Positions 3,001-49,746 of a DNA stretch of 64,000 bases are shown here, one piece after another (the first letter of the stretch is position 1; every line of letters begins with the position of its first letter). The stretch lies in the NCBI GenBank assembly GCA_964464475.1, contig CAYXGG010000001.1, positions 23,174 through 87,173 on the forward strand, written 5' to 3'. The notes beneath the pieces were generated by a model. That model saw nothing but the letters and a program-made list of their open reading frames with translations. It was not told the origin of the DNA and did no database searches. The stretch is from an uncultured Planctomycetales bacterium. GTDB taxonomy: Bacteria; Omnitrophota; Gorgyraeia; Zapsychrales; JAHFFX01. Both the position numbers and the translations under genes were made by a program.

Positions 3001-6000
3001 GATACGCCGGCGTTAACTGGAATGATTTGTATTCGCTTTCAACAGCGAGTATTAATTGGAATGACTTTGCGGTTATGAATGCCACGGGGGTCAACTGGAG
3101 CGACTTAGATATTTTAAGCGAAGCGGGAATCAACTGGTTGGATATCGATGTGATGTCTCGTAATGGCGTTAATTGGAACGATTTGACTGTCATGACGCGC
3201 TCGGGTGTTAACTGGACCAATTTTTCTGACATGTCCGGGACCAACTGGACCAATATTAGTGATATGGCGGCGTCGGGGGTCAACTGGACCGGCTTTACTG
3301 ATCTATCAACGGCGGGGGTTAACTGGAATGACGTCGGGGTTATGTCATCTATCGGCGTCAATTGGAATGATTTGAACAGCTTGACAACGGCGGGGGTCAA
3401 CTGGAACGACCTGGAATCTTTAAGCAGAAAAGGCGTTAATTGGAATGATCTGGAAGTGATGTCCAATACCGGAATTAATTGGGATAATTTTTATGACATG
3501 ACCCAAGGTATTAATTGGAACAACATGTATGACTTGACTCGAGCGGGAGTTAATTGGAACGATTTGACGGTGATGACATCCTTGGGGGTTAATTGGAACG
3601 ATTTATATTCATTGTCTACGGTGGGAATTAATTGGAATGATATTGATGTCATGGCCAGAGCGGGGGTCAATTGGAATGATTTAAACTCTCTTGCCGCCGC
3701 AGGGGTGAACTGGACAGGCTTAAATGAAATTACGGTCTCCGGCGTTAACTGGAATGATATTAGTGTGCTGGCTGCGGCTGGTGTCAATTGGACGGACATT
3801 GATGTCATGAGTCGTACGAGTATTAACTGGGCGGAATTTTATACCTTAACGACTCAAGGCATTAATTGGGCGAGTATCGGTTCGATGACGACCGCAGGTA
3901 TCAACTGGAACGATATTGATACGTTAAGCCGTACGGGTGTGAATTGGGATGATTTGTACGCGCTGACCACGGCCACTATTAACTGGAATGATTTTAGCGT
4001 CATGACCAATACCGCGATCAACTGGTTGGATGTTGCCGTCATGCATAACTTGGGAGTCAATTGGTCTGACCTCGATGTGTTATCCCGGATCGGAATGAAC
4101 TGGAATGATTTGCAGGTCATTACTTCGACGGGAATCAACTGGGTGGATTTGGATATTTTAAGTGACGCTGGAGTCAACTGGGCGGACATTGATATCATGA
4201 GTGAGACGGGTATCAACTGGTCTGATTTAGACATTATGCATGACGCGGGGGTGAATTGGAATGACTTGGATGTGATGAGCGACGCGGGTGTTAATTGGAG
4301 TGATTTGACGGTGATGTCGCAGTCAGGGGTGAACTGGAACAATTTTTCACTGATGTCGGGCACTAATTGGACCAACATTAGTGATATGTCTCAGACATCC
4401 ATTAATTGGTACAGTATTGAAGAGATGTCCGGCGCGGGGGTCAACTGGAATAATTTTAGCGATATGGCGGGAGTCAGTATTAATTGGAATGACGTTGCCG
4501 TCATGGCGGCGACGGGTGTTAATTGGACCGATTTGGATATTCTGACCGAAGCCGGTGTTAACTGGAACGATTTGGATGCGCTGTCCAGAGCCGGTGTCAA
4601 CTGGAATGATTTGACGGTGATGAGTACCCGAGGGGTCAACTGGAACACGATTTATGACATGACGTCAGCGGGCATTAATTGGACGAATTTTGGGGACATG
4701 TCTTCTTCCAGTGTTAACTGGGATTCCATCGCCTTAATGGGATCTGCCAGCATTAACTGGGATGATTTTTATCTTCTGACGACTAAGGGTATCAACTGGG
4801 ACGATGTGGGACGCATGACCACAGTCGGCATTAACTGGAATGATATGACGGTTTTAACGCAAGCGGGTGTCAATTGGTCAGGATTAAATGAGTTAGCTGT
4901 ATCCAACGTTAACTGGACGGGTCTTCAAGATTTGTCGACGGCCAATGTCAATTGGAACGATTTGACTGTGTTAAGCTCGGCCGTTGTTAACTGGACGGAT
5001 TTGGCTGTCCTCTCTGAGTCGGGGGTCAATTGGAATGATCTCTCCGCGCTCAGCGTTGCGGGAGTGAATTGGAATGATATTAATGTTTTGTCTTCTCGGG
5101 GAATTAATTGGAATGATTTAGGTGTTTTAACTACTGCCGGGGCTAACTGGAATGACCTAACGGTGTTGACATCGGTTGGGGTCAACTGGAATGACCTGAC
5201 GGTCTTCTCTAATATGGGCATTAACTGGATTAATTATTCAGATTTAACAACGGCCGGAACAAATTGGTCGGACATAGAAGTGTTGTCTCGCGCTGGGGTT
5301 AATTGGAATGATTTGACTGTATTAGCTCAAGCGGGTGTCAATTGGACGGATTTAGATATTATGAGCGATGCGGGCGTTAATTGGGATGATTTGAATTCCT
5401 TGAGTCGAGCGGGAATTAATTGGTTGGAAATCGATACTTTGAGTCGCGCGGGGGTCAACTGGACGGGGCTAAATGAATTGGCGATTTCTAATGTGAATTG
5501 GACGGATCTTAATAGCATGACCACCGCCGGAGTGAATTGGGCGAGTCTATATGATCTTTCGGTCGCGGGTGTTAATTGGAATGATATCTCAGCCATGAGC
5601 TATCAAGGCGTTAATTGGAATGATTTTGGAGTCATGACGACTCAAACGATCAATTGGAATAATTTAACGGTAATGAGTAGCTCCGGTGTCAACTGGACGG
5701 ACATGGCTTACTTAACCACTTCGGGCGTTAACTGGGACAACATGAGCACCATGACCGGAGTCAACTGGACTAACGTTAGTGATATGGCGTCAGCCGGCGT
5801 TAACTGGGATAGTTTTGCGGAATTAGGAAGCGCTAATGTGAACTGGACCAACGTGAGTGACTTAAGTTATGCCGGGGTGAACTGGAATGATTTGGGTGCG
5901 ATGAGTGGGGCGGGTATCAATTGGACAGAAATTGATGTATTAAGTCGTGCCAGCGTCAACTGGACAGGCATTAATGATCTGTCCACGGCCGGCGTCAACT

Positions 6001-9000
6001 GGACGGATATGGGCGTGATGAGTTCTACGGGCGTTAACTGGACGGAGATTGATGTGCTGTCGCGTTCTGGTGTGAACTGGACGGGTATTAATGATTTATC
6101 GACTTCCGGCGTCAACTGGACGGATGTCGGATTATTAAGTAGCGCCGGGGTGAATTGGAATGATTTGTCGGTATTAACATCTACGGGCGTCAACTGGGCC
6201 GATTTGGACATCATGAGTGACGCGACCATCAACTGGGCGGATTTGGATATCATGCATGATGCGGGTATTAATTGGGAAGATTTTCAAGTCCTTACTTCTC
6301 GAGGGGTTAATTGGAATGACTTAGATGTGTTGAGCCGCGCGAATGTTAATTGGACCGGTATTAATGAAATGTCTATCGCGGGAGTTAATTGGACGGGCAT
6401 TAATGATTTATCCACCGCGGGAGTTAATTGGACGGATTTAGGGGTCCTGTCAACGGCTAGCGTTAACTGGAACGATCTGACGGTGATGACTAGTCTTGGG
6501 ATTAACTGGACGGACATGGGTGTCATGTCATCTTCCGGGGTCAACTGGGTAAACTTTAATGAAATGTCCGGTGTGAATTGGACTAACTTAGGCGAAATGT
6601 CAACCTCAGGATTAAATTGGAACGATTTAACGGTGATGTCATATAGCGGTGTTAATTGGGACAGTTTTGGCGCGATGAGCACCGCGGGCATTAACTGGAA
6701 TGATATTGGAACATTATCATCGGCAGGGGTTAACTGGACAGAAATTGATGTGTTATCTCGCGCGGGCGTTAACTGGTCGGGATTAAATGATTTATCTGTT
6801 GCCGGGGTCAACTGGAATGATTTATCCGTCATGAGCTCGGTGGGAGTTAATTGGACGGAAATTGACGTGCTGTCACGCGCTGGGGTCAACTGGACGGGGA
6901 TCAATGATTTGTCAACGGCTGGAATCAATTGGACGGATGTCGGATTATTAAGTAGCGCCGGGGTGAATTGGAATGATTTGACGGTATTAACGTCGGCTGG
7001 TGTTAATTGGGCCGATTTGGACATCATGAGTGACGCGAGTATTAATTGGGCGGATTTGGATATCATGCACGATGCGGGCGTGAATTGGGATGATTTGCAA
7101 TCCATGTCGACGAGAGGTGTTAACTGGACTGACATAGATGTCTTAAGTCGTGCGAATGTGAATTGGACGGGCATCAATGAATTATCCGTTGCCGGAGTCA
7201 ACTGGGTGGGGATGCAGGATTTGTCGATTGCCGGGGTCAACTGGACCGATATTGGCGTGATGGGAGCCACGGGTATTAACTGGACCGACTGGGACGTGAT
7301 GACGCGCGCGGGCATTAACTGGAATGATTTAAGTTCCATGTCTGCTTCCGGCGTAAATTGGGCTAACTTTTCAACGATGTCTGGGGTGAACTGGACCAGC
7401 ATTAGTGAAATGGCGTCGGCAGGAATTAACTGGGATAATTTCGCGGACATTGCAGCTGCCGGTGTCAACTGGGACAACGTTTCGGTGATGTCCTATTCTG
7501 GCATTAATTGGAATGATTTTGGGGTAATGTCATCCTCAAGTATTAACTGGACGGAAATTGATGTTTTAAGTCGCGCCGGAGTCAACTGGGTTGGCGTTAA
7601 TGATCTGTCTTTGGCGGGCGTCAACTGGAATGATTTATCGGTGATGAGTGGCGTTGGGGTTAACTGGACGGAAATTGATGTTTTAAGTCGCGCGGGTGTG
7701 AACTGGACAGGAATCAATGATTTGTCCGCCGCAGGGATCAACTGGACGGACATGGGAGTTTTGAGCGCGGCCGGTATTAACTGGACCGATATTGATGTGT
7801 TGAGTCGGACCGCGATTAACTGGAATGATCTTACCGCCATGACCACGACGGGTGTGAATTGGGCTGATTTAAATTATCTGACCAACCTGGGGCTAAACTG
7901 GAATGATATTCAGGTTATGTCGTCTCGGGGAATTAACTGGGATGATTGGACGGTGTTAAGTCGGGCGGGAGTTAACTGGGATGATTTTAATCGTTTATCA
8001 TCTTCCGGAATGAACTGGGAAGATATTCAAGTCATGACGACGCGCGGCATCAACTGGACCGACGTTGATACTTTAAGTGAAGCGGGCATTAACTGGCTTG
8101 GTGTTCAAGACCTTTCGGTGGGCGGAGTTAATTGGCTTGGGATGCAGGATCTTTCTATCGCCGGGGTCAATTGGAACGATCTCAACGTGATGAGTACTTC
8201 TGTCATCAATTGGACGGATTTTGGTGTCATGAGTGTTGCGGGTGTCAACTGGACGGATATGTCGGTGATGACGCAGGCCGGTGTGAATTGGTCGAACTTC
8301 TCAACGATGTCCGGGGTCAACTGGACCAGCATTGGCGAAATGGCTTCGGCTGGGGTTAATTGGGACAATTTTGCGGACGTCGCTAACGCGGGAGTCAACT
8401 GGGATAACGTGGGTGTGATGACCTACGCCGGTGTTAACTGGAATGATTTAGGTTCCATGACCTCGGCCAATATTAACTGGACGGAATTAGACGTGTTAAG
8501 CCGCGCCGGCGTCAACTGGGTTGGTGTTAATGATTTGGCAGCGGCGGGCGTTAACTGGAATGATTTGTCGGTGATGAGCGCGGTCGGCGTCAACTGGACG
8601 GAAATTGATGTCTTGAGTCGCGCGGGGGTCAACTGGACGGGAATTAACGAGTTATCCTCGGCGGGAGTGAACTGGACCGACCTCGGTGTTTTGAGTGGGG
8701 TTGGGATCAATTGGTTTGATTTGGATGTGTTGAGCCGTACGGGGGTGAACTGGTCTGATTTAGATGTGATGTCGGATGCCAGCATTAATTGGAATGATTT
8801 TCAGGCTTTATCGTCGACCGGCATTAATTGGAATGATTTGACGGTCATGAGCGCTCAGGGCGTTAACTGGACGGAAATTGATGTCTTAAGTCGCTCCGGC
8901 GTCAACTGGACTGGCATTCAGGATTTGTCCTTAGGGGGAGTCAACTGGACTGACTTGGGAACTTTGACGGCGGCGGGAATTAATTGGAATGATTTAAACG

Positions 9001-12000
9001 CGTTGTCCACAACGGGTGTTAACTGGAATGATTTGGATGTGTTAAGTCGCGCCGGCATTAATTGGCAGGATATGACGGTGATGACTAGCTCCGGAGTCAA
9101 TTGGTCGAATTTCTCTACTATGTCGGGCGTCAACTGGACTAGCATTGGCGAAATGGCGTCGGCCGGAATTAACTGGGACAATTTTGCCGATGTCGCGGCA
9201 GCAGGAGTCAACTGGGACAACATTGGCGTCATGACGTACGCCGGTATTAATTGGAACGACATGAGTTTGATGAGTTCCATTGGTGTGAATTGGAATGATT
9301 TGCAGGTGATGACTTCTCAAGGCGTCAACTGGACATCCTTTAATGATTTGACGGTAGCTGGGATCAACTGGACGGATATGGGCTCTATGACCACGGCGGG
9401 TATTAACTGGAATGATTTGGATACGTTAAGTCGTACCGGCGTGAACTGGACGGGGATTAACGAGCTTTCGGTGGCGGGTGTTAACTGGACCGATATTGGA
9501 GTTTTGAGCGCGGCGGGGGTCAATTGGACCGACTTGGATGTGTTGAGTCGCACGGGCGTCAACTGGCTGGATTTAGGGACGATGAGTGGTGCGGGCATTA
9601 ACTGGTCAGACTTGGATATCATGCATGACGCGGGCATTAACTGGACGGATATGGATGTGATGTCTCGCTCTGCTGTTAACTGGGCAAGTTTTGGCGAGAT
9701 GTCGGGCGTTAATTGGACCAGTATTGGGGACATGGCGTCTGCCGGTGTCAACTGGGATAATTTTGCGGATGTGGCTAACGCCGGCATTAATTGGGACAAC
9801 GTGGGAATCATGACCTATGCGGGGGTTAACTGGACGGAAATCAGCACACTTTCTGCAGCAGGAGTGAATTGGAATGATTTGAGTGTTTTAACGGGGGTCG
9901 GGATCAACTGGAATGACATCACCGTCATGTCTTCCCTAGGGATGAATTGGTATGATTTGGGCGTGATGGCTGCCATCGGAGTTAATTGGTCCGACCTGGA
10001 TGTTTTAACAAAGTCGGGCGTTAACTGGACCAATTTTACTGAAATGTCTACGGCGGGCATTAATTGGGCCAGCGTGAGTGACATGTCGGGCGTTAATTGG
10101 AACAATATCACTGAGATGTCGGTTTCGGGTATCAACTGGAGCGATATTGATGTGTTAAGTCGCAGTGGGATTAATTGGAACGATATCAGTGCTTTGGCTT
10201 CGACCGGAATCAACTGGCTGGATCTGGATATTATGAGCGACGCCGGCATCAATTGGAACGACATGCAGGCGTTAACCAACGCCGGCGTCAATTGGAACGA
10301 CATTAATGTGTTATCAACCATGGGCGTTAATTGGAGTAATCTGTACGACATGACGACGTTTGGGATTAACTGGTTAGATATTGATGCGCTGTCGCGTGCG
10401 GGCATTAACTGGACCGATATCCAAACCATGAGCACGACAGGCGTTAACTGGACCGATATCGATGTCTTAAGTGACGCGGGCGTTAATTGGAGCGAGCTGG
10501 ATGTCATTACCCGCATAGGGATCAACTGGAATGATTTGCAATCGTTGACCGCGGCAGGAGTCAACTGGTTGGATATTGGCCAAATGAGCAGCATCGGTAT
10601 CAACTGGACTGACATTCAGGCGATGAGTACGACGGGAGTAAACTGGACCAGCATTTATGATATGTCGGTTACGGGAATCAATTGGTTGGATATTGATGTG
10701 ATGAGTGACGCGGGGGTCAATTGGTCCAGCGTTTCTGACTTGTCTTCGGCGGGCGTGAATTGGAATGATATTGATGCGTTAAGCCGCACGGGGATTAATT
10801 GGAATGATTTGGGAACTTTAAGCGCAGCGGGGATTAATTGGATGGATATTGGGGTGTTAAGCACAACGGGCATTAACTGGATTGATATCGATATTCTTAG
10901 TGATGCGGGCATTAATTGGGCGGACTTGGATATTTTAAGTGATACAGGTATCAACTGGGCAGACATTGAGGTGATGGGACGTACGAACATCAACTGGTCA
11001 GACATTGGGAGCTTGAGCACCGCGGGAGTTAATTGGAATGATATCGACGCTTTAAGTCGCACGGGGATTAACTGGGCAGACCTCAATACGTTAACGACTC
11101 AGGGAATTAATTGGGCTAACGTTTACGATTTGTCCACCGCAGGTATTAATTGGGCGGAAATCGACACGTTAAGCCGTGCGGGAGTTAATTGGGCGGACTT
11201 GCAAACGATGAGCGTGGCGGGAGTTAACTGGTTGAGTTTTGAAGTCATGAGTAGTGTTGGCGTGAACTGGAATGACCTGGCGGTTATGCACGCTTCGGGG
11301 ATTAATTGGCAAGATTTTACGACCATGACGACGGCCGGAGTCAACTGGGACAATTTTGTGGGGATGTCGGGCGTCAACTGGGGAAGCATTGCGGACATGG
11401 CTTCGGCGGGCATTAATTGGGATAGTTTTAGCGAAGTTTCCGCGGCCGGCGTTAATTGGGATAACATCGGGGTGATGGCAGGAGTCGGGATTAACTGGAA
11501 TGATATCAGTAGCCTATCGTCTTCTGGGGTTAACTGGAATGATATTCAAACTTTGAGTTCTTCGGGAGTTAATTGGACTAATTTTACAGAAATGTCCACG
11601 GCGGGGATTAACTGGGCTAGCGTGAGTGATATGTCTGGTGTGAATTGGAACAACATTACGGAAATGTCCACCGCTGGCATTAATTGGAATGACATTGATG
11701 TCTTAAGTCGAACGGGCGTCAACTGGGCCAATATGTACGAGATGTCGACCATGGGTATTAATTGGGCGGACATCGATGTGATGAGCGATATGGGCGTTAA
11801 TTGGTATGACATTGAACGGATGAGCACCGTTGGGCTTAACTGGCAAGACCTCGACATTATGTCGGACGCGGGTATTAATTGGAATGATTTGCAGTCGCTC
11901 AGTAACGCTGCGATCAATTGGTCTGACTTAGACATCATGACGGAAGCAGGTGTCAATTGGAACGATATTTCGGCGATGTCTTCGTTGGGAGTGAATTGGA

Positions 12001-15000
12001 ATAATCTTTATGATTTGAGTGTGGCGGGGGTTAACTGGCATGATATTGATGTGATGACCAGAAACGGTATCAATTGGTTGGATATCGACATCATGGTCCG
12101 AGCGGGCATCAATTGGGGTGACCTTAGCGTTTTAACCGCTCAAGGGGTCAACTGGAACAACCTTTATGATTTGAGTGTCGCGGGAGTAAATTGGAATGAT
12201 TTTACCGTCATTACTAATACGGGTATCAACTGGCTGGATCTGCAAGTCTTAAGCGCTCAAGGCATCAACTGGTTAAATTTTGACGATCTTTCAAAGGCCG
12301 GTATTAACTGGACAGACATCAATACTTTGAGCAGCGCCGGTATTAATTGGTCCGATGTCAGTACTATGTCAGCAGCGGGAGTTAACTGGTTAGATATTGA
12401 TACGTTATCTAGGACGGGAATTAATTGGAGCGACTTAGATGTTTTAAGTGATACGGGAATTAATTGGGCGGAGATCGACGTGTTAAGTCGCACCGGCATC
12501 AATTGGAATGACATTCAAGTTTTATCGGCACAGGGCATGAATTGGGCGAGCTTAGATGAAATGACCAAGGCCGGGATTAACTGGCTGGATATTGAATCGA
12601 TGAGTGTTAAAGGAATTAATTGGAATGATATTCAAACGATGAGCGTTTTGGGTATCAATTGGAACAATATTGATGAATTGTCCAAAGCCGGTGTTAATTG
12701 GACAGACATTGATTTAATGAGTGATACCGGTATCAACTGGTATGACGTTGAGCGACTAAGCGCTGTCGGTATTAATTGGAGTGACTTGAATGTTATGTCC
12801 ACTCAGGGGGTTAACTGGTTGGACATTGAGCGCATGAGCAATAATGGGGTCAATTGGACGGACATTTCGCTCATGTCCGGATCTGGCATTAATTGGGCTA
12901 ACTTCGCAGATATGTCGGGGGTCAATTGGTCCAGCATCAGTGACATGGCGGCGGCGGGCATTAACTGGGATAGTTTTGCGGATGTAGCCAACGCGGGCAT
13001 TAATTGGGAAAACGTTGGGGTCATGTCTTACTCGGGCATTAACTGGAATGACCTAAGCGTGATGTCTACCACCGGCATGAATTGGCTGGATATTGAACGC
13101 ATGTCCGGAACCGGTATCAACTGGTATGACATCGAGACTTTAAGCGGCACAGGTATTAATTGGTTGGACATCGATATTATGTCGGATGCCGGCATTAACT
13201 GGGGTGATTTGGATGTGTTAAGTCGGGCTGGCGTTAACTGGGCTGATATCGATGTGATGACCGAGCAGGGCGTCAATTGGGCTAATGTTTATGACCTGAC
13301 GGTCGCGGGCATTAATTGGAATGATATCGATGCGTTGAGTCGTACCGGAATCAACTGGGATGATTTGGCTTATATGGCGAATTCGGGTGTCAATTGGTCG
13401 GACATGTCAACCATGTCGGCGAGCGGTGTCAATTGGAATGATATTGCCACACTTTCCGCGACCGGGATTAATTGGCTGGATTTCGACGTGATGAGCGATG
13501 CGGGTATTAATTGGGTTAGCGTCAATGATTTGTCGCAAGCCGGTATCAACTGGTTGGATTTACAAACCATGAGCGTCACGGGAATTAACTGGGGGGATTT
13601 TGGTGTCTTAAGCGCGGCGGGCGTCAACTGGTTAAATGTGGGTGAGATGAGTTCTTCAGGAGTTAATTGGTATGACATTCAGACGTTAAGCGCTGTCGGC
13701 ATTAACTGGAGTGATATTGGCGTCTTGAGCGCAACGGGCATTAACTGGTTAGATATCGATGTCTTGAGTGATATGGGCGTTAACTGGTCAAGTATAGATG
13801 AGCTTTCCAAAGCTGGAATTAATTGGACGGACATTGATACGCTAAGCGACGCCGGAGTGAACTGGAGTGATTTTGCTTCTTTGACCGCGGCGGGAATTAA
13901 TTGGATAGACATCGACGCTTTAAGTGATGCCGGTATCAATTGGTTGGACATTGAAATTTTAGGGTCGCGCGGGATCAATTGGAATGATTTATCAACGATG
14001 AGTGCGGCCGGAATTAACTGGTATGACGTGCAAACGCTAAGTGAAACCGGCATCAACTGGAGCGATATTGGGGTGTTAAGTTCTGCCGGTGTTAACTGGT
14101 CAGATTTGGATATCATGAGTGACACCGGCATCAACTGGTTAGATTTCCAATTTATGAGTGTTTCCGGCGTCAATTGGGCGGATTTGGACATTATGACCGA
14201 TGCCGGCATAAATTGGGCTAGCATGGAAGTGATGACCGCGTCTGGAATCAACTGGGTAAACTTTAGCGATATGTCTTTTGTGAATTGGTCCACGATCAGT
14301 GAAATGTCGGCCGCGGGCATCAATTGGGATAACATTGGGGTGATGGCGGCATCCGGCATTAACTGGGACGATATTGGCTCCATGACGACTTCGGGTGTCA
14401 ACTGGTTAAGTGTCGGAGATCTATCGGCAGCGGGAATCAATTGGAATGATATTGAAAAGATGAGCACGCAGGGCGTCAATTGGAATGATTTAAACGTGAT
14501 GGCTTCTGCCGGTATTAACTGGTCCGATTTCTCCGTGTTGACTCAGTCGGCTATTAACTGGCAGAATTTTGCCGAAATGTCGGGCATTAATTGGACGAGT
14601 ATCGGCGATATGGCGGCTGCGGGTATTAATTGGGATAATTTCTCCGACGTCGCTAACGCGGGGATCAATTGGGACAACATCGCGGAAATGTCGTATACCG
14701 GAGTGAACTGGTTTGACTTTGAACGTTTGTCAACCGCCGGTATCAATTGGAACGACGTTTTTGCCATGAGCTCGACAGGAATTAACTGGAATGATCTGAG
14801 CGTCTTCTCCACCACGGGTGTCAATTGGAATGACATTTACACCATATCAACAACCGGTATCAATTGGTTTGATATCGAATCCATGAGTAACATGGGTGTC
14901 AATTGGACGGACTTGGACATTATGAGTGACGCCGGTGTGAATTGGGCGGACATTCAGATGATGGGGACGCTGGGCGTCAATTGGACTGATTTAAGTACTA

Positions 15001-18000
15001 TGACGGCCAGTGGTGTTAATTGGTCAGATTTTGGCGTTCTTACCTCCAGCAACATTAACTGGCAGAATTTTGCCGATATGTCATCGGTCAACTGGGCTAG
15101 TATTAGTGATATGGCGTCTGCGGGTATTAATTGGGACAATTTTGCGGACGTTGCTAACGCAGGTGTCAATTGGGATAACGTGGGTGTCATGACGTATTCG
15201 GGTATCAACTGGTACGACATGGGGGTCATGACGGGTGGCGGCATTAACTGGTTGGACGTCAGTACATTAAGCACCGAAGGCATCAACTGGACTGATTTGG
15301 ATACCATGACGGATGCGGGTATCAACTGGGCTGACCTGCAGACGCTTACCGTTATGGGCATTAACTGGTCGGATTTGGATGTGATGTCTGATTCAGGCAT
15401 TAACTGGAACGATATTTCTCGTCTCGCCGGTGTGGGCATCAATTGGGAAAATATTTATACGATGTCGACTGTTGGGATCAACTGGAATGATTTTGAAACT
15501 ATGTCGAACATCGCCATCAACTGGCAGAATTTTGCCGAAATGTCGGGGATCAACTGGGCAAGTATCGGCGACATGGCTGCTGCCGGTATTAACTGGGATA
15601 ATTTTTCCGACGTCGCGAACTCCGGAATCAACTGGTATGAGATCGCGGTGATGGCGGATTCTGACGTAAATTGGAACGACTTAGGCGAAGTCACGGCCGC
15701 GGGTATTAATTGGTCGGACTTCTCGGTCATGAGTAATACGGGCGTCAACTGGATCAATATTGGCGATCTTTCCGGCGCGGGCATTAACTGGTTGGAAATT
15801 GATACGATCAGTCAGACAGGTATCAACTGGAATGATCTACAGGCGTTGACCACCGCTAATATTAATTGGAATGATCTTAACGTGATTTCCACTCAAGGCA
15901 TTAATTGGTTTGATCTGCAAGTGATGAGCGTGGCACAAATTAACTGGACGGATCTACAATCCATGTCGTCGATTGGTATCAACTGGCAAGATATTAATGT
16001 GATGAGCCAGGCGGGTATTAATTGGGCGGATGTTGATGTGTTATCTGAAATAGGCATCAATTGGGATGACCTTCAATCCCTTTCAACGACGGGGATTAAT
16101 TGGGCCGATTTGGATGTGATGTCGGATGCCGGGATCAATTGGGCCGCTTTAGAGTATATGTCGGCCAGTGGCGTGAACTGGTATGACATTTCGTATATGT
16201 CAACGTCCGGTGTCAACTGGACGGACATGAATACCATGACGACCATCGGCGTTAATTGGGCCAATTTTGGGGACATGTCCGGCGTCAACTGGGCGAGTAT
16301 TAGTGATATGGCGTCAGCGGGTATTAATTGGGATAACTTCGCCGGTGTTGCTAACGCAGGGGTCAATTGGGATAACGTCGGCGTGATGTCTTATTCAGGA
16401 ATTAATTGGGATGATATTGGGACTATGTCCACTGTCGGTGTCAACTGGTCGGACATTCAAATCATGTCGGACGCCAGCGTGAATTGGCTTAATTTTGCCG
16501 ACTTGTCCGGCGTTAATTGGACCAGCATTGGAGAAATGGCTTCCGCCGGGATTAATTGGGACAATTTTGCCGACGTCGCTTCCGCCGGCATTAATTGGGA
16601 TGGCGTCGGTGCCATGGCCAGCGCGGGCATTAATTGGGAAGATATTGGTACTATGTCCGTCCAGGGAATCAATTGGGCTGATTTTTACGGCCTCAGCACC
16701 TCTCAAATTAATTGGTATGAGCTCGAGAACATGAGTAATGTGGGCATTAATTGGACGGACTTAAGCACGATGACCAATGTGGGCGTCAACTGGTTTGATA
16801 TTGATCTCATGAGTGATTCGAATGTGAATTGGTCAAACTTTTCAGAAATGTCTGGCGTGAATTGGGCAAGTATCGCGGAAATGGCGTCCGCGGGAATCAA
16901 TTGGGACAATTTTTCTGACGTGGCGAACGCGGGTATCAACTGGGATAACGTTGGCGTTATGTCTTACGCGGGTGTTAATTGGTCAGATATGGCAGAATTA
17001 ACCGGCGCGGGTATTAATTGGACGGATCTCAATCGCGTTTCTGAAACCGGAATCAATTGGAGTGATTTTGGAGTTTTGTCTACGACCGGTATCAATTGGG
17101 AAGATATTGGTTCGATGTCGACCAGCGCGATCAATTGGGGTGGTCTGCAAGACATGACGTCATCCAACATTAACTGGTTGGATATTGAATTTTTAAGCAC
17201 GCAAGGCATTAATTGGAGCGCCTTGGGCGATATCGCGAACGCCGGAGTCAACTGGTCGGATATTGAAGTGATGAGTTCGTTGGGGATCAACTGGAGTGAT
17301 TTGGATGTTCTTTCCGATGCTGGCGTCAATTGGGCGGATCTGAGCACCATGAGCGCCAATGGCATCAACTGGGCCAATATTTACGATTTGTCCTCCACCG
17401 GCATCAATTGGGATGGAATTGACCAAATGAGTCGCTCCGGTGTCAACTGGGAAAACATCGGTGACCTTTCGATCGCCGGTGTCAATTGGTTTGATATTGA
17501 ATCCATGTCCTCCAAGGGAATCAATTGGACTGATTTTGGAACGTTAAGTGAATCGGGTATTAATTGGTTAGACATCGGTGCTCTGTCGGATGCCGGCGTC
17601 AACTGGACGGATTTGGATATTATGAGCGATGCGGGAGTTAATTGGGCTGAATTTGAAGTCATGAGTAAGGCTGCCGTCAACTGGGACAATTTCTCTAATA
17701 TGTCGAATATCAATTGGGCCAGTATCGGGGAGATGGCCGCGGCAGGGATTAATTGGGATAGCTTCGCAGATGTCGCGAATGCGGGTATCAATTGGGAAAA
17801 TGTCGGGGTGATGTCCTACGCGAGCGTGAACTGGAATGATTTAGGCGCTTTGAGCACCGCGGGGGTCAACTGGAATGACCTGTCTTACATGACCAGCGTG
17901 AGCGCTAACTGGGAGAATTTCTCAGAGATCTCGGGGGTCAACTGGTCTAGTGTTGGCGAAATGGCTTCTGCGGGTATCAACTGGGATAATTTTTCAGACG

Positions 18001-20141
18001 TCGCTAACGCCGGTATTAACTGGGATTCGGTGGCCTACATGGCAGAAGCGGGTGTTAACTGGAATAATATTAGTACTATGGCCAGTTCGGGCATCAATTG
18101 GTATGACATTGAATTCATGAGCAATAATGGCATTAATTGGGATGATTTAAATTACTTAACGACTTTGGGTGTTAATTGGGATAGTTTTTATTCTATGTCC
18201 GCGTCGGGTATCAATTGGACGGATATTGACCGCATGACGGATACCGGAATTAACTGGGAAGATTTTAGTGTTTTCTCTGCCGCCGGCATCAACTGGGATA
18301 ACTTTGCTTTAGCTTCTGGAACCAACTGGGGAAGCATTGCTGACATGGCATCGGCGGGTATTAACTGGGATAATTTTAGCGGAGTCGCGAACGCCGGTGT
18401 CAACTGGGACAATGTCGGGGTCATGTCTTATGCCGGTGTTAATTGGGATGATATTAGTTCCATGTCCAACACCGGGGTCAACTGGGATGACATTGAAACA
18501 TTAAGTAGCTCAGGAGTCAATTGGTCTGAGTTAAACGTATTCTCGACCTCAGGAATCAACTGGAGCGATATCCATGTTCTTACGGCCTCGGCGATTAATT
18601 GGACTAATATTGGAGATATGTCTGCAACGGGTATCAACTGGCTAGATATTGGTCAAATGTCTTCATCCGGCATAAATTGGAACAGTCTCTCGGTGATGTC
18701 CGACGCAGGCATTAATTGGTACGATATTGAAACGATGACCACGGCGGGAGTTAACTGGACCGATTTCTCCCAATTGTCGGGTGCGACTATCAATTGGGAC
18801 AATCTCGATGTCCTCACGGATGCAGGTGTCAATTGGGATGGTTTTGGTGAAATCAGCTCGGCTGGTATTAACTGGCTCAATATGGGCGCCATGACCGAAG
18901 CTAACGTGAATTGGGAAAACTTGGCTGAGAACTCGTCGGTGAACTGGACGAACGTCTCTGACATGGCTGCCGCGGGCGTTAATTGGGAAAGTTTCTCGGA
19001 CATTGCTGCGTCAGGAGTCAATTGGGACAATATTTCTTACATGAGCGAGTCGGGTGTCAATTGGCAAAATGTTGGGGAATTGAGTTTGTCCGGCATCAAT
19101 TGGCAGGAAATTGAATCCTTGTCGGTGGCGGGCATTAATTGGAGTGATATTACCCAAATGACCGTTCAAAATATTAACTGGGCAGATTTGAATACATTAA
19201 CGACTTCCGGGGTCAACTGGGCGGATCTTTCTTACATGAGTTTTAGTGGTATTAACTGGGTGGATATGTCTAACTCCTCTCGCGCCGGTATCAATTGGCA
19301 AGACATCGCGAACATGAGCAATGCTAATGTCAATTGGGCGGGTATTGAGTATTTAGCGAATAATGCCCAGTCTTTGATCACGAATATTAATTCGATTCTA
19401 ACCGTTGTTAATAGTTTAAATACGAAGATGGGTGAATTAGCCGACACCACGTCCAGCAATAGTTTGTTTGGTAAAGTCGCTCAGATTTATCAAGAAGTTC
19501 AGAATTTGGCCGGTGGCGGTGTCAGCAACATTGAGTCCATCGTGACGGCTATGCAGACTAAGCTGGGAGCAGCTACCGATGCCAGCAATTCCAATACGGT
19601 TTTTGGAGACTTACAATCAATCCAGGATTATGTCGATACGCTGGAAACTTTAGTCGGCGTCACCACGGATACCTCGACGGATACCATTTTTGGTCAATTA
19701 AGCGGCATGCCGGAAATTAGAGAAAATGTTTCTAAAGCTAAAAGCGGCGCGAACGCGGCCTTGGGCGAAGCTCAGGAAATCCGTAAAGAAATCGGCGCCA
19801 AAGGTGAGACTCCGGCGCTCTATGAACGCGTGAAGCGACTGGAAAATATGCTCAAAGAATTGCAGGGCTTGTCGGAAAAGATCGCTCAAAGTAAGGTCAG
19901 CTCGGGTGGTTTAACGACAGAGATTCTAGAGATGCTGACGAATCTGGTGGAAAAAAGCGCGAAAGCGTTAGGTTTGTCCGGGGAAGCGATTAAGATTTCA
20001 CCGTTGAAACCTGGCGAAGAAGAGGATCTGTCCAACGTTAACGAAAAATTGGATGAAATCCGCGCTAAGACGGATCTTCTGAAGGAAGCGGCTGAGGCCG
20101 AGAATGTCGTCGTCAAGAGCTGGTTTGAAAGCGGTGAGTAA
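6..20141 (+). CDS. Giant tandem-repeat protein, more than 6,700 aa visible. The frame is open to the window's first base, so the 5' end is probably partial. It consists of about 490 tandem 13-residue units (G-V/I-N-W-N/T/S/D-D/G-L/I/F-x-x-L/M-S/T-x-x) plus a C-terminal alpha-helical or coiled-coil domain of roughly 260 aa. A likely role is a cell-surface fibre or adhesin.
   Basis: A single uninterrupted frame runs for 20.1 kb with 39-nt periodicity. The invariant Gly/Val/Asn/Trp are encoded by varying synonymous codons (ggc/ggg/ggt/gga; gtc/gtt/gta/gtg; aac/aat, with tgg fixed), which indicates selection at the protein level. The stop is TAA at 20139-20141. No recognisable known domain family was found. 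A hydrophobic periodicity (positions 3, 5, 8, 11) with an invariant Asn suggests beta-solenoid rungs; this is inference. Confidence 0.85.
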   Translation: MWVESDNDRVAITTGDAATLTIYRQDGSTSEASLTMTLDDTNDWWKSNSWNPSDPRDTYLARGTCEQGVSTYNLTTDVNVAAQAVNWTDISDIRTNIDKANWDDLGVLTSQGINWNDLASLTTAAVNWQDLGVLTTQGVNYSDFGVLTTRAINWEDFNVMSIRGVNWTDIAALHAVGVNWNDLYSLTSVAVNWVDLAFMTSAGVNWSDIAYMSGSGTNWTANVNWDSLAELTNASVNWNDIYSMTSRNINWEDLNVMASLGINWTNYADMTLVGTNWNDISVLTARGINWNDVGVLTNLGANWTNFADLTLAGTNWNDLTVLTYAAVNWADLYALTTAGANWNDLGVLTTAGVNWSDLTVLSRITVNWNDLSVLTSQGVNWNDLSTLTTVGVNWNDVNVLTTRGVNWNDIGIMTTQGVNWNDISTLTSTGVNWNDLTVLTRAGANWDDLYTVSTKGLNWDEFQSMTTKGINWNSIADMSAVGVNWNDIVVLSYASVNWDGIQAMSVGGVNWNDLGTMSTAGVNWTGMYDLSVANTNWSGLNEMTTAGINWTDVGVLSARGINWDGINELSIGQVNWDGIQALSVGLVNWTGIAELSYSGTNWTEIDVLSRAQVNWTGIQDLSFGGVNWNDLTVLSRAGANWDDLSVLSASGVNWTDIDIMSDAGVNWNDLSVLTSRAVNWEDLNVMTTRGVNWDDLQVMSTRGINWVSLYDMSVANINWNSLEVMSTSNVNWVGVYDMSASNVNWTGISELSIANVNWTGVNELTAAGVNWNDLAVFTSVGTNWNDFSVITNTAINWTDLDLLSKQGVNWNDLASMTSAGVNWNDITVLSRTGVNWTGIYDMSVSGVNWGGIQDLSVANTNWTGIYDLSVGNVNWTGIQSLSEGNVNWTDLDVLSRSNVNWNDLTVMTATGVNWTGLNELSVSAINWTGIQDMTAAGVNWNDLSVFSYAQVNWTEIDNLSRQGINWNDLSVMTALGVNWTSINDLSKAAINWDDITVMGYAGVNWNDLYSLSTASINWNDFAVMNATGVNWSDLDILSEAGINWLDIDVMSRNGVNWNDLTVMTRSGVNWTNFSDMSGTNWTNISDMAASGVNWTGFTDLSTAGVNWNDVGVMSSIGVNWNDLNSLTTAGVNWNDLESLSRKGVNWNDLEVMSNTGINWDNFYDMTQGINWNNMYDLTRAGVNWNDLTVMTSLGVNWNDLYSLSTVGINWNDIDVMARAGVNWNDLNSLAAAGVNWTGLNEITVSGVNWNDISVLAAAGVNWTDIDVMSRTSINWAEFYTLTTQGINWASIGSMTTAGINWNDIDTLSRTGVNWDDLYALTTATINWNDFSVMTNTAINWLDVAVMHNLGVNWSDLDVLSRIGMNWNDLQVITSTGINWVDLDILSDAGVNWADIDIMSETGINWSDLDIMHDAGVNWNDLDVMSDAGVNWSDLTVMSQSGVNWNNFSLMSGTNWTNISDMSQTSINWYSIEEMSGAGVNWNNFSDMAGVSINWNDVAVMAATGVNWTDLDILTEAGVNWNDLDALSRAGVNWNDLTVMSTRGVNWNTIYDMTSAGINWTNFGDMSSSSVNWDSIALMGSASINWDDFYLLTTKGINWDDVGRMTTVGINWNDMTVLTQAGVNWSGLNELAVSNVNWTGLQDLSTANVNWNDLTVLSSAVVNWTDLAVLSESGVNWNDLSALSVAGVNWNDINVLSSRGINWNDLGVLTTAGANWNDLTVLTSVGVNWNDLTVFSNMGINWINYSDLTTAGTNWSDIEVLSRAGVNWNDLTVLAQAGVNWTDLDIMSDAGVNWDDLNSLSRAGINWLEIDTLSRAGVNWTGLNELAISNVNWTDLNSMTTAGVNWASLYDLSVAGVNWNDISAMSYQGVNWNDFGVMTTQTINWNNLTVMSSSGVNWTDMAYLTTSGVNWDNMSTMTGVNWTNVSDMASAGVNWDSFAELGSANVNWTNVSDLSYAGVNWNDLGAMSGAGINWTEIDVLSRASVNWTGINDLSTAGVNWTDMGVMSSTGVNWTEIDVLSRSGVNWTGINDLSTSGVNWTDVGLLSSAGVNWNDLSVLTSTGVNWADLDIMSDATINWADLDIMHDAGINWEDFQVLTSRGVNWNDLDVLSRANVNWTGINEMSIAGVNWTGINDLSTAGVNWTDLGVLSTASVNWNDLTVMTSLGINWTDMGVMSSSGVNWVNFNEMSGVNWTNLGEMSTSGLNWNDLTVMSYSGVNWDSFGAMSTAGINWNDIGTLSSAGVNWTEIDVLSRAGVNWSGLNDLSVAGVNWNDLSVMSSVGVNWTEIDVLSRAGVNWTGINDLSTAGINWTDVGLLSSAGVNWNDLTVLTSAGVNWADLDIMSDASINWADLDIMHDAGVNWDDLQSMSTRGVNWTDIDVLSRANVNWTGINELSVAGVNWVGMQDLSIAGVNWTDIGVMGATGINWTDWDVMTRAGINWNDLSSMSASGVNWANFSTMSGVNWTSISEMASAGINWDNFADIAAAGVNWDNVSVMSYSGINWNDFGVMSSSSINWTEIDVLSRAGVNWVGVNDLSLAGVNWNDLSVMSGVGVNWTEIDVLSRAGVNWTGINDLSAAGINWTDMGVLSAAGINWTDIDVLSRTAINWNDLTAMTTTGVNWADLNYLTNLGLNWNDIQVMSSRGINWDDWTVLSRAGVNWDDFNRLSSSGMNWEDIQVMTTRGINWTDVDTLSEAGINWLGVQDLSVGGVNWLGMQDLSIAGVNWNDLNVMSTSVINWTDFGVMSVAGVNWTDMSVMTQAGVNWSNFSTMSGVNWTSIGEMASAGVNWDNFADVANAGVNWDNVGVMTYAGVNWNDLGSMTSANINWTELDVLSRAGVNWVGVNDLAAAGVNWNDLSVMSAVGVNWTEIDVLSRAGVNWTGINELSSAGVNWTDLGVLSGVGINWFDLDVLSRTGVNWSDLDVMSDASINWNDFQALSSTGINWNDLTVMSAQGVNWTEIDVLSRSGVNWTGIQDLSLGGVNWTDLGTLTAAGINWNDLNALSTTGVNWNDLDVLSRAGINWQDMTVMTSSGVNWSNFSTMSGVNWTSIGEMASAGINWDNFADVAAAGVNWDNIGVMTYAGINWNDMSLMSSIGVNWNDLQVMTSQGVNWTSFNDLTVAGINWTDMGSMTTAGINWNDLDTLSRTGVNWTGINELSVAGVNWTDIGVLSAAGVNWTDLDVLSRTGVNWLDLGTMSGAGINWSDLDIMHDAGINWTDMDVMSRSAVNWASFGEMSGVNWTSIGDMASAGVNWDNFADVANAGINWDNVGIMTYAGVNWTEISTLSAAGVNWNDLSVLTGVGINWNDITVMSSLGMNWYDLGVMAAIGVNWSDLDVLTKSGVNWTNFTEMSTAGINWASVSDMSGVNWNNITEMSVSGINWSDIDVLSRSGINWNDISALASTGINWLDLDIMSDAGINWNDMQALTNAGVNWNDINVLSTMGVNWSNLYDMTTFGINWLDIDALSRAGINWTDIQTMSTTGVNWTDIDVLSDAGVNWSELDVITRIGINWNDLQSLTAAGVNWLDIGQMSSIGINWTDIQAMSTTGVNWTSIYDMSVTGINWLDIDVMSDAGVNWSSVSDLSSAGVNWNDIDALSRTGINWNDLGTLSAAGINWMDIGVLSTTGINWIDIDILSDAGINWADLDILSDTGINWADIEVMGRTNINWSDIGSLSTAGVNWNDIDALSRTGINWADLNTLTTQGINWANVYDLSTAGINWAEIDTLSRAGVNWADLQTMSVAGVNWLSFEVMSSVGVNWNDLAVMHASGINWQDFTTMTTAGVNWDNFVGMSGVNWGSIADMASAGINWDSFSEVSAAGVNWDNIGVMAGVGINWNDISSLSSSGVNWNDIQTLSSSGVNWTNFTEMSTAGINWASVSDMSGVNWNNITEMSTAGINWNDIDVLSRTGVNWANMYEMSTMGINWADIDVMSDMGVNWYDIERMSTVGLNWQDLDIMSDAGINWNDLQSLSNAAINWSDLDIMTEAGVNWNDISAMSSLGVNWNNLYDLSVAGVNWHDIDVMTRNGINWLDIDIMVRAGINWGDLSVLTAQGVNWNNLYDLSVAGVNWNDFTVITNTGINWLDLQVLSAQGINWLNFDDLSKAGINWTDINTLSSAGINWSDVSTMSAAGVNWLDIDTLSRTGINWSDLDVLSDTGINWAEIDVLSRTGINWNDIQVLSAQGMNWASLDEMTKAGINWLDIESMSVKGINWNDIQTMSVLGINWNNIDELSKAGVNWTDIDLMSDTGINWYDVERLSAVGINWSDLNVMSTQGVNWLDIERMSNNGVNWTDISLMSGSGINWANFADMSGVNWSSISDMAAAGINWDSFADVANAGINWENVGVMSYSGINWNDLSVMSTTGMNWLDIERMSGTGINWYDIETLSGTGINWLDIDIMSDAGINWGDLDVLSRAGVNWADIDVMTEQGVNWANVYDLTVAGINWNDIDALSRTGINWDDLAYMANSGVNWSDMSTMSASGVNWNDIATLSATGINWLDFDVMSDAGINWVSVNDLSQAGINWLDLQTMSVTGINWGDFGVLSAAGVNWLNVGEMSSSGVNWYDIQTLSAVGINWSDIGVLSATGINWLDIDVLSDMGVNWSSIDELSKAGINWTDIDTLSDAGVNWSDFASLTAAGINWIDIDALSDAGINWLDIEILGSRGINWNDLSTMSAAGINWYDVQTLSETGINWSDIGVLSSAGVNWSDLDIMSDTGINWLDFQFMSVSGVNWADLDIMTDAGINWASMEVMTASGINWVNFSDMSFVNWSTISEMSAAGINWDNIGVMAASGINWDDIGSMTTSGVNWLSVGDLSAAGINWNDIEKMSTQGVNWNDLNVMASAGINWSDFSVLTQSAINWQNFAEMSGINWTSIGDMAAAGINWDNFSDVANAGINWDNIAEMSYTGVNWFDFERLSTAGINWNDVFAMSSTGINWNDLSVFSTTGVNWNDIYTISTTGINWFDIESMSNMGVNWTDLDIMSDAGVNWADIQMMGTLGVNWTDLSTMTASGVNWSDFGVLTSSNINWQNFADMSSVNWASISDMASAGINWDNFADVANAGVNWDNVGVMTYSGINWYDMGVMTGGGINWLDVSTLSTEGINWTDLDTMTDAGINWADLQTLTVMGINWSDLDVMSDSGINWNDISRLAGVGINWENIYTMSTVGINWNDFETMSNIAINWQNFAEMSGINWASIGDMAAAGINWDNFSDVANSGINWYEIAVMADSDVNWNDLGEVTAAGINWSDFSVMSNTGVNWINIGDLSGAGINWLEIDTISQTGINWNDLQALTTANINWNDLNVISTQGINWFDLQVMSVAQINWTDLQSMSSIGINWQDINVMSQAGINWADVDVLSEIGINWDDLQSLSTTGINWADLDVMSDAGINWAALEYMSASGVNWYDISYMSTSGVNWTDMNTMTTIGVNWANFGDMSGVNWASISDMASAGINWDNFAGVANAGVNWDNVGVMSYSGINWDDIGTMSTVGVNWSDIQIMSDASVNWLNFADLSGVNWTSIGEMASAGINWDNFADVASAGINWDGVGAMASAGINWEDIGTMSVQGINWADFYGLSTSQINWYELENMSNVGINWTDLSTMTNVGVNWFDIDLMSDSNVNWSNFSEMSGVNWASIAEMASAGINWDNFSDVANAGINWDNVGVMSYAGVNWSDMAELTGAGINWTDLNRVSETGINWSDFGVLSTTGINWEDIGSMSTSAINWGGLQDMTSSNINWLDIEFLSTQGINWSALGDIANAGVNWSDIEVMSSLGINWSDLDVLSDAGVNWADLSTMSANGINWANIYDLSSTGINWDGIDQMSRSGVNWENIGDLSIAGVNWFDIESMSSKGINWTDFGTLSESGINWLDIGALSDAGVNWTDLDIMSDAGVNWAEFEVMSKAAVNWDNFSNMSNINWASIGEMAAAGINWDSFADVANAGINWENVGVMSYASVNWNDLGALSTAGVNWNDLSYMTSVSANWENFSEISGVNWSSVGEMASAGINWDNFSDVANAGINWDSVAYMAEAGVNWNNISTMASSGINWYDIEFMSNNGINWDDLNYLTTLGVNWDSFYSMSASGINWTDIDRMTDTGINWEDFSVFSAAGINWDNFALASGTNWGSIADMASAGINWDNFSGVANAGVNWDNVGVMSYAGVNWDDISSMSNTGVNWDDIETLSSSGVNWSELNVFSTSGINWSDIHVLTASAINWTNIGDMSATGINWLDIGQMSSSGINWNSLSVMSDAGINWYDIETMTTAGVNWTDFSQLSGATINWDNLDVLTDAGVNWDGFGEISSAGINWLNMGAMTEANVNWENLAENSSVNWTNVSDMAAAGVNWESFSDIAASGVNWDNISYMSESGVNWQNVGELSLSGINWQEIESLSVAGINWSDITQMTVQNINWADLNTLTTSGVNWADLSYMSFSGINWVDMSNSSRAGINWQDIANMSNANVNWAGIEYLANNAQSLITNINSILTVVNSLNTKMGELADTTSSNSLFGKVAQIYQEVQNLAGGGVSNIESIVTAMQTKLGAATDASNSNTVFGDLQSIQDYVDTLETLVGVTTDTSTDTIFGQLSGMPEIRENVSKAKSGANAALGEAQEIRKEIGAKGETPALYERVKRLENMLKELQGLSEKIAQSKVSSGGLTTEILEMLTNLVEKSAKALGLSGEAIKISPLKPGEEEDLSNVNEKLDEIRAKTDLLKEAAEAENVVVKSWFESGE
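250..19350 (+). repeat. Coding tandem-repeat array with a 39-nt (13-codon) unit and occasional 33-nt (11-codon) units. A recurring conserved block of about 135-150 nt punctuates the array, and there are longer near-identical super-repeats of roughly 0.8 kb.
   Basis: The motif ...GVNWNDL(S/T)VL(T/S)xx... recurs with 13-aa spacing through the whole ORF. Nucleotide strings such as ggggtcaactggacgg and gttaattggaatgatttg recur hundreds of times. The reverse strand is also largely open in two frames, as expected for a strict periodic repeat. Confidence 0.9.
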
Positions 20142-29369: not shown

Positions 29370-29382
29370 CCAATTAAAGTCT

Positions 29383-30591: not shown

Positions 30592-30592
30592 G

Positions 30593-31414: not shown

Positions 31415-31427
31415 TCAACTAAAAGGA

Positions 31428-31853: not shown

Positions 31854-31854
31854 A

Positions 31855-32277: not shown

Positions 32278-32289
32278 CCATAACTATCC

Positions 32290-33959: not shown

Positions 33960-33961
33960 CC

Positions 33962-46124: not shown

Positions 46125-46136
46125 ATTCTTCGGTAT

Positions 46137-49487: not shown

Positions 49488-49499
49488 GCAGGAGGACTC

Positions 49500-49691: not shown

Positions 49692-49746
49692 TAATTTTTC
49701 ATGAGGAAAGATTGAAGGCGTGTTAGGTCAGAAAGGAGCTGTTGCA

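Follow-up and report, generated by a model that had tools for sequence, protein, structure and literature searches.

A conserved four-unit cassette in the 13-residue repeat array of a giant gene, probably from an Omnitrophota bacterium

The window analyzed here, a stretch of 64,000 nt from contig CAYXGG010000001.1 (assembly GCA_964464475.1), opens within a giant gene on the + strand, most of which encodes a tandem array of 13-residue units with an invariant Asn-Trp pair (NW units). Within this array a cassette of four units, the first of them shortened to 11 residues, recurs in fixed order. The cassette copies are old, because their synonymous sites are saturated, and they are kept by purifying selection stronger than in the flanking units. 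The protein is very acidic, probably secreted, and probably that of an Omnitrophota bacterium. If it is a surface fiber, as signal peptides in its homologs suggest, there is about an even chance that the cassettes are repeated docking sites along it, and possibly hinges. A first reading of the sequence (the original prediction) had described a recurring four-unit module and longer super-repeats at 5900-19050; both are considered below.

The array and its cassettes

The whole 5900-19050 region lies within a single + strand open reading frame (ORF), listed from nt 6 to 20141, with 6711 aa visible. The frame is open up to base 1 of the window (codon 3-5 is TAT), so the gene is 5′-truncated by the window edge and occupies 1-20141. 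The first residues in the window, YMWVESDNDRV, align with IYSWVESDNNRM of the homolog P0011, at about residue 205; the start, signal peptide, and head of the gene are upstream of the window, and relatives have a signal peptide and some 200 to 1900 more N-terminal residues.

The array itself (255-19364, + strand) consists of 493 tandem units with the consensus G-[VI]-N-W-x-D-[IL]-x-x-[ML]-[ST]-x-A. Successive NW pairs are 13 aa apart in 465 cases and 11 aa apart in 23, with spacings of 6, 12, 15, and 26 aa once each. There are no Cys or Pro residues, and acidic residues (711) far outnumber basic ones (97), for an isoelectric point of 4.05. Two classes of unit can be distinguished: class A (65%), with Asp or Glu at position 6, and class b (35%), with a non-acidic residue at position 6 and usually an acidic one at position 9. 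Inside a unit, the position pairs with the most mutual information are 6-9, 8-12, 6-8, 8-9, 5-8, and 9-12, mostly i/i+3 and i/i+4 pairs.

A cassette consists of four class-b units in a row, the first of them an 11-mer, in the order xxNWxNFxxMS, xxNWxSIGxMAxA, xxNWDNFADVANA, xxNWDNVGVMxYA. The 11-mer is a unit without positions 12-13; in the three class-b units after it, residues are fixed at positions that elsewhere vary freely. The full ordered cassette occurs 16 times, and once in partial form (14244, with the DNFADVANA unit missing); among 2000 shufflings of unit order, the mean number of ordered cassettes was 0.0055 and the maximum one. The module of the original prediction, shortened unit included, is thus a real conserved element. 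So is the confinement to it of the DNFADVAN-type motif: the pattern NW[DE][NS]F[AS]x[VI][AS] is found 17 times, 16 of them as cassette unit 3 and one as the 11-mer of the 17901 cassette. More generally, 22 of the 23 11-mers sit in class-b runs of at least three units, and 22 of the 27 such runs hold an 11-mer. Cassette and array do not differ in net charge (-0.10 per residue in both).

There are no canonical cassettes in the first 140 units of the array, and they are dense in the last 135. All copies are on the + strand. Canonical four-unit cassettes are at 7350-7499, 8280-8429, 9093-9242, 9672-9821, 11337-11486, 12885-13034, 14550-14699, 15051-15200, 15513-15662 (with a diverged unit 4), 16248-16397 and 16476-16625 (in the first and second of two 228-nt, 6-unit tandem blocks), 16821-16970, 17673-17822, 17901-18050 (228 nt past the preceding one), and 18285-18434; the last and most divergent, 18903-19052, is seven units ahead of the array's last unit. 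The partial cassette (11-mer, unit 2, and unit 4) is at 14244-14354. The 17 positions named in the original prediction are all 11-residue units (7350 to 18903), although its count of “at least 18” copies slightly overshoots the canonical form (17) and falls short of the full set of 11-mers (23). The six further 11-mers start at 3204, 4326, 5724, and 6537, in degenerate cassettes, and at 10056 and 11604, in two variant ones. The degenerate copies are an 11-mer with two class-b units (3204-3314), an 11-mer with three (4326-4475), and the heads of the first two copies of the super-repeat described below (5724-5873 and 6537-6686). The variant cassettes (10017-10127 and 11565-11675) read GVNWTNFTEMSTA GINWASVSDMS GVNWNNITEMSxx, GINWASVSDMS being the 11-mer.

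Age of the copies and higher-order repeats

Copies were compared by the Nei-Gojobori proportions of synonymous (pS) and non-synonymous (pN) differences. For the 16 cassettes (120 pairs) pS is 0.78 and pN 0.18, while for 87 ordinary four-unit blocks these are 0.77 and 0.38, so that constraint at the protein level is about twice as strong within the cassette. Taken unit by unit, with pairs lying within the super-repeat zone left out, pS and pN are 0.82 and 0.25 for unit 1 (the 11-mer), 0.75 and 0.15 for unit 2, 0.78 and 0.13 for unit 3, and 0.78 and 0.21 for unit 4; for the two flanking units on either side they are 0.73-0.78 and 0.34-0.39. The jump in pN thus falls at the four-unit borders, and the constraint is therefore not a by-product of larger recent duplications. 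No two are close copies at the DNA level: the minimum pS for any pair is 0.53, and the highest nucleotide identity 83%. Even the two variant cassettes, with 91% identity at the variable positions of four units and 78% amino acid identity over 63 aa, have a pS of 0.90.

Higher-order structure is nevertheless present, as the original prediction proposed. Unit-to-unit identity peaks at lags of 21, 24, 42, and 45 units, with units at these fixed lags more alike than neighbors, and diagonal runs, 13-27 units long and 65-74% identical at variable positions, extend over units 140-241. These correspond to a zone at 5724-9671 (+ strand) where a 21-unit (813-nt) block is present in four to five copies, each beginning with an 11-mer. 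The blocks start at 5724, 6537, 7350 (this one with 24 units, 930 nt), 8280, and 9093, and the pattern is limited to nt ~5724-9700. The super-repeats of about 0.8 kb therefore exist, and were made by segmental duplication, but the offset between them is 813 nt rather than about 830, and they are not near-identical: DNA identity is 61-78%, with pS 0.65-0.82 overall and 0.32-0.44 in the best local windows. The stretches described as almost identical DNA near 6110-6260 and 6950-7090 correspond to 6114-6269 and 6927-7082 (156 nt, the best-matching stretch), with 89% identity and a pS of 0.40; the longest exact repeat, here and in the entire gene, is 51 nt. Tandem Repeats Finder recovered just 2-5-copy patches (63-86% matches), plus periods of 117 and 228 nt.

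These figures bear on whether the array could owe its length to recent segmental duplication or ongoing unequal crossing-over, with young copies driving length variation, as had also been suggested. The super-repeat and the 6-unit tandem blocks are what such a process would leave, and the 156-nt stretch with its 51-nt exact match points the same way, although it could be an old gene-conversion tract. Against this, neither cassettes (mean pS 0.78, minimum 0.53) nor super-repeats (0.65-0.82) show near-identical DNA between copies as expected from recent homogenization, no cassette pair exceeds 83% nucleotide identity, exact repeats reach only 51 nt in 20 kb, and the Tandem Repeats Finder patches are few-copy and imperfect. 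Duplication that was recent is very improbable as an explanation. Without longer exact repeats the cassettes are also poor substrates for homologous recombination, and recombination from cassette to cassette is unlikely; with the saturation of synonymous sites, this removes the suggestion that they serve as module boundaries for recombinational length variation.

The absence of exact repeats longer than 51 nt also means that the cassettes are not collapsed-read artifacts. Mis-joined or collapsed repeat reads have to be considered, given that genes of relatives nearly always break at contig ends within the array and the family is evidently hard to assemble. However, artifacts would give identical copies or frame breaks, whereas here the frame is intact over 20 kb and any two cassettes differ in at least 17% of their DNA, mostly at synonymous sites; the same cassette is also present in an independent assembly (L095, below). 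An assembly origin is scarcely credible.

A neutral history is less easily put aside: the cassette might be an ancestral landmark, without a function of its own, passively copied within larger duplications. The first five copies do head the 21-unit super-repeat, and distant relatives manage without repeated cassettes. Passive copying does not, however, explain why conservation stops exactly at the four-unit border, with the flanks at background level, why the cassette recurs amid unrelated flanks beyond the super-repeat zone, or why it has been kept in the L095 ortholog, whose C-terminal domain is 68% identical. On balance hitch-hiking seems unlikely. Some copies have traveled at the head of a 21-unit super-repeat, others in a 6-unit block, and others alone.

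Relatives and neighboring genes

Homologs of the C-terminal domain, and of the 448-aa protein encoded downstream, carry the source names Candidatus Omnitrophota or Omnitrophica. The NW-repeat family is rare: a profile of the cassette region matched 601 of 1.84 billion cluster representatives at E ≤ 1e-3, 154 at E ≤ 1e-10, and 30 at E ≤ 1e-30. Three members appear to be full-length: P0022 (2809 aa), P0023 (1292 aa, with an uncertain N-terminus), and P0026 (900 aa); the N-termini of P0022 and P0026 are signal-peptide-like. The family plan is a variable head (with Laminin_G_3 in P0023, and Ig_Rha78A_N in P0021 and P0022), an immunoglobulin (Ig)-like module, the NW array, and a conserved C-terminal domain. 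Arrays share a capping landmark near each end: an N-proximal one (…AYMSGAGVNWDETINWDNLAELTTA, or …NWDETINWDNLAEL… in the form used for membership), and a C-proximal one (…AYMTGxGxNWxDMGxSSxxGxNWSDLAxMxxANINWSDIAYLA, for membership …AYMTGxG…ANINWSDIAYLA). The giant gene has all of the family's features that fall within the window: the landmarks, the array, and a C-terminal domain ending in VVVK[ST]WFE. This non-repeat domain (19365-20141, + strand; ~270 aa) is helical and coiled-coil-like, with TDxxxxxT[VL]FG motifs and the final sequence VVVKSWFESGE.

The source of the cassette can be seen in more distant relatives. P0022, P0023, L005, and L007 each carry one block of three units that resembles cassette units 2-4, lies 11-15 units before the array end, and follows, exactly or more loosely, the pattern NW[ST][SN]I[ND]DLSxA - G[IV]NWD[GN]I… - GVNWDN[IL]G…; it reads GVNWSNINDLSRA GVNWDGITTISQA GVNWDNIGVMSTA in P0022 and GINWTSIDDLSSA GINWDNINEMSGA GVNWDNLGELAQA in P0023, and in L008 its last unit alone is clear. 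The closest ortholog retrieved, L095 (GCA_023247755.1), has an 11-mer-led cassette, GVNWANFADAS GINWASIAEMAGA GVNWNAFYDVANA GINWNNIGDMTSS, five units ahead of the array's last unit, a placement resembling that of the last cassette in the giant gene. The cassette is related to this three-unit landmark, from which it derives, and was copied at least 17 times in this lineage. Two distant arrays, L097 (at least 202 units) and L098 (at least 232), consist of near-pure 13-mers with no cassettes, so the cassette is an add-on and not part of the basic fold.

Units of irregular length are found elsewhere in the family. A search for the spacing pattern NW-13-NW-11-NW-13-NW, independent of sequence, returned 85 loci; some 14 are true arrays of the family, the others chance matches or unrelated repeats. 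The orthologous L046, L050, and L055 have one 11-mer in common, set in a conserved three-unit context; L075 has GVNWDTIYDMS four times at 10-13-unit intervals; and 11-mers are recurrent in L093 too. P0021 has 15-residue units in place of 11-mers: at ~1850-2000, three of them, ending MA[VI]D[IV][QH]G, are interleaved with GINWDSIADMSDA, GINWDNFADLSSA, and GVNWDNIREMTDA, which resemble cassette units 2-4. Off-length units among fixed neighbors are thus a recurring habit of the family, with this particular cassette and its amplification specific to one clade.

Further copies were sought more widely. The cassette profile matched only short frameshifted fragments in an index of 5.8 billion proteins, none of them with the cassette, and the exact DNA signature of the 11-mer junction had no match in metagenome_contigs. 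A scan of genome_contigs with the C-terminal domain found four loci, all ending inside the array at a contig end. One candidate for a complete 382-aa mini-version, P0009, was rejected, being what follows a scaffold gap inside a long array. This genome is not alone in having a very long array, since on a 39,752-bp contig of ENA sample ERZ27297570 an ortholog with a 5610-aa product lies upstream of a neighbor protein 60% identical to the one described here.

Several other features of the array can be mentioned. Val at position 2 predominates in the first half and Ile in the second, and Arg drops from ~5 to 0-1 per 20 units along the array as Glu goes up; this drift suggests regional duplication histories. 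The 15-residue spacing is at the very start, near 261; the apparent 26-residue spacing is due to a GVNYSDF unit at 384-460, with NY for NW; and the 12-residue unit (GINWDNFYDMTQ) is at 3477. The 6-residue mini-unit belongs to the N-proximal landmark (651-728, + strand; …AYMSGSGTNWTANVNWDSLAELTNA, and AYMSGAGVNWDETINWDNLAELTTA in relatives), where GTNWTA-NVNWDSLAELTNA is preceded by AYMSGSG. This landmark is present in essentially all relatives, and it contains a unit, NWDNLAEL, similar to cassette unit 3 (NWDNFADV). Antisense ORFs of up to 397 aa (for example 6284-7477) are found over the array at 2846-15442 on the - strand, and look like by-products of the codon pattern of the repeat. In L002-L004, minus-strand genes of 284-801 aa are annotated where the + strand encodes an NW array; they seem to have the same origin, likely an annotation trap.

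The giant gene is always followed by one for a partner protein of ~450 aa (here 448 aa, 20160-21506, + strand; P0163 is 100% identical), homologs of which have a signal-peptide-like N-terminus; it has no Pfam match at E ≤ 0.001. Next is an F-type ATPase operon whose genes are unusually ordered: alpha, epsilon, c, a 79-aa two-helix protein, a b-delta fusion, gamma, beta. The locus lacks subunit a. The alpha and beta subunits pass the NCBI atpA and atpD cut-offs, and the operon may simply encode the cell's ATP synthase. It is followed by genes for an MshE-like ATPase with a PilZ domain, GspF, a peptidase MA, and pilin-sized ORFs, and for T2SSK-, PilM/N-, and GspM-like proteins. The type II secretion-like genes proper (T2SSE with MshEN and PilZ, T2SSF, T2SSK-like, PilM/N, and GspM-like) are at 27165-36192, in an order identical in eight related loci; from 20160 to 36192 gene order is invariant across diverged Omnitrophota (including L001, L002, and L094-L098). 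The tight linkage of ATPase operon, pilus-like machine, and giant fiber gene is striking. L005, L006, and L008, labeled “uncultured Planctomycetales” metagenome-assembled genomes, carry the same locus of NW protein, ATPase, and type II secretion genes as Omnitrophota-labeled records, and their labels are probably imprecise.

N-W-[ST] sequons number 155, in 31% of the units (44% in L097 and 74% in L098), none with the acidic -2 residue of the Campylobacter type. A gene for an STT3-family oligosaccharyltransferase is found ~17 kb downstream (37018-39714, - strand), and heavy N-glycosylation of the stalk is possible. At 43396-49487 are the genes of an efflux set of the resistance-nodulation-division (RND) type: an outer membrane factor like TolC, an HlyD-like adaptor bearing heavy-metal-binding domains, and a pump of the AcrB family. 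They are followed up to 52010 by genes for YHS/TRASH-domain proteins and an ArsP-type permease; 43396-52010 is probably an efflux island for metals of the Cu/Ag type.

Possible function and comparison with known systems

The original prediction spoke of rungs in a solenoid, implying beta structure, but the available evidence favors helices. AlphaFold2 was run on a 271-aa segment centered on a cassette, with 17 paralogous rows, and on 154 aa with 92 in-register rows; both models are of low confidence (predicted local distance difference test, pLDDT, 42 and 49), and both have one short helix per unit, at positions ~7-12, and no strands. The helix of the 11-mer is shorter, again at low pLDDT. The i/i+3 and i/i+4 covariation within units agrees with a helix, and favors it over beta rungs. 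The sequence logic of the unit also fits a helix: by general helix-capping rules, the Asn/Thr-Asp ahead of it could be an N-cap and the Ala-Gly-[VI] behind it a Gly C-cap. Sequence searches of the PDB with the repeat found no solved homolog, only noise from periodicity and coiled coils; those with the C-terminal domain found weak coiled-coil-type matches only. The NW repeat is a candidate new fold, because it falls below every Pfam curated cut-off, has no solved relative, and is modeled at low confidence.

If these predictions are right, an ordinary unit would be a capped two-turn helix followed by a G-[VI]-N-W turn, with such units stacked into an extended stalk. At one end of the stalk, beyond the window, would be a variable N-terminal head of lectin-like type, and at the other the conserved C-terminal domain, which might engage envelope machinery encoded downstream of the giant gene. 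The cassette would then combine a local irregularity, a helix two residues shorter, with a distinct conserved surface of Phe, Phe, Tyr, Asn, and Asp at otherwise variable, presumably exposed, positions. It could serve as a docking site, and possibly a point of flexibility, for a putative partner molecule or glycan; it would not be a recombination device. Of the roles first proposed for the module, an interaction site or kink is the one retained, with pN 0.13-0.25 inside the cassette versus 0.34-0.39 outside.

It could instead be a purely structural stutter: the 11-mer and its three followers would correct or kink the superhelical phase of the stalk, without any partner. Recurrence of 11-residue units across the family in differing sequence contexts, the 15-residue units (P0021) or 6-residue mini-units of other lineages, and the shortened helix in the AlphaFold2 models are all in keeping with this. 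Yet it is units 2 and 3 that are most constrained (pN 0.15 and 0.13), not the 11-mer (0.25); long arrays exist with no stutter at all (L097, L098); and the spacing of cassettes is irregular, from 6 to 43 units. A stutter and nothing more is a doubtful explanation. Docking is favored over pure geometry because of the strong constraint on units 2-3 and the irregular spacing.

Several points nonetheless weigh against docking sites on a surface fiber. The same irregular spacing gives no hint of a periodic superstructure. Surface location is drawn from the signal peptides of homologs, and the helix-turn stalk and the effect of deleting two residues from low-confidence models. The role of the cassette is dispensable for the family, as the long arrays of L097 and L098 do without it. 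The lower pN of cassettes could also come in part from their belonging to a narrower sequence class (class b), rather than from a specific interaction, but the flank control argues against this.

A bolder idea, and a rather improbable one, is that the array is a new fold, a solenoid or fiber built from capped two-turn helices of 13 residues, and the stalk about as long as a nanobacterial cell, with cassettes as multivalent docking stations, the whole being an organelle put together or driven by the type IV pilus-like machine and F-type ATPase encoded alongside it. If true, the stations might receive host or prey surface glycans or accessory proteins, and the organelle would be a cell-surface structure of a new kind for an episymbiotic or predatory lifestyle. 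Giant repeat proteins, thought to attach to hosts or prey, are a hallmark of Omnitrophota, but their genes are almost all fragmented in assemblies and their internal organization is rarely visible. This nearly complete array of 493 units indicates that a tandem repeat can be old and stable at the DNA level, with units obeying a two-class grammar and one four-unit cassette multiplied and held by selection. The cassette provides a defined 50-residue target for binding and structural work, and NW-x-N-F-x-x-M-S-G-[VI]-N-W a sequence signature for following this clade.

Among known systems, the repeats-in-toxin (RTX) adhesins LapA, MpIBP, and SiiE have a comparable plan, in which a long acidic repetitive extender joins a ligand-binding head to a conserved anchoring end. 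The homologs, with their variable lectin-like heads, fit this logic. The extender units here are of 13 residues, however, rather than Ig-like domains of ~100 aa, and homologs of the giant protein have an N-terminal signal peptide. A Pfam scan found no RTX nonapeptides, and there are no adjacent type I secretion genes, the TolC/HlyD/AcrB set at 43396-49487 being RND-type efflux.

Short periods broken at intervals by an off-length unit are familiar from the stutters, stammers, and skip residues of coiled coils and from the punctuated 11/22-mer helical repeats of apolipoproteins. As there, the irregular unit would change local geometry, in a protein that is probably helical; but each NW unit has its own Gly/Asn turn, so that there is no single continuous helix, and the irregular 11-mer is accompanied by three neighbors of fixed sequence. 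Bacterial ice-nucleation proteins, which are beta-solenoids with a uniform 16/48-residue hierarchy, likewise have a short unit within a longer period, with identity higher between units a set lag apart. In the giant gene one region (units 140-241) has such a hierarchy, and elsewhere the cassette recurs irregularly. The 13-residue period is shared with Pfam PF25533 (Lysostaphin_N, the tandem repeats of prolysostaphin), the sole Pfam model to score, at 53.5 bits against a curated gathering cut-off of 60; the match is one of periodicity alone, with no shared motifs.

Close parallels are the Omnitrophota giant repeat proteins whose genes adjoin type II secretion-like loci (West-Roberts et al., 2023, bioRxiv 10.1101/2023.11.21.568195; 10.64898/2026.06.07.730766). 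The phylum is the same, judging by the source names of homologs, and the gene is very long, encodes probable extracellular repeats, and is adjacent to GspE-, GspF-, and pseudopilin-like genes. The conserved type II secretion-like locus that characterizes the 2023 giants is thus also found here. Repeat DNA is diverged, as the 2026 preprint (10.64898/2026.06.07.730766) reports to be generally the case, rather than freshly expanded. The product is much shorter than the proteins of at least 30,000 aa treated in these sources. It also differs from the “Archaeovorins” (HEAT/GT/TPR) and the “Dockerin-type” giants (dockerin, thrombospondin type 3): no such domain was found by Pfam in the three segments of the protein that were scanned or in full-length homologs. 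The 13-residue repeat is not mentioned in the searched text of either source, and literature searches found no description of it. The giant gene thus adds to the giant repetitive surface proteins of bacteria one built on a 13-residue repeat not described before, with a multi-unit cassette held by selection.

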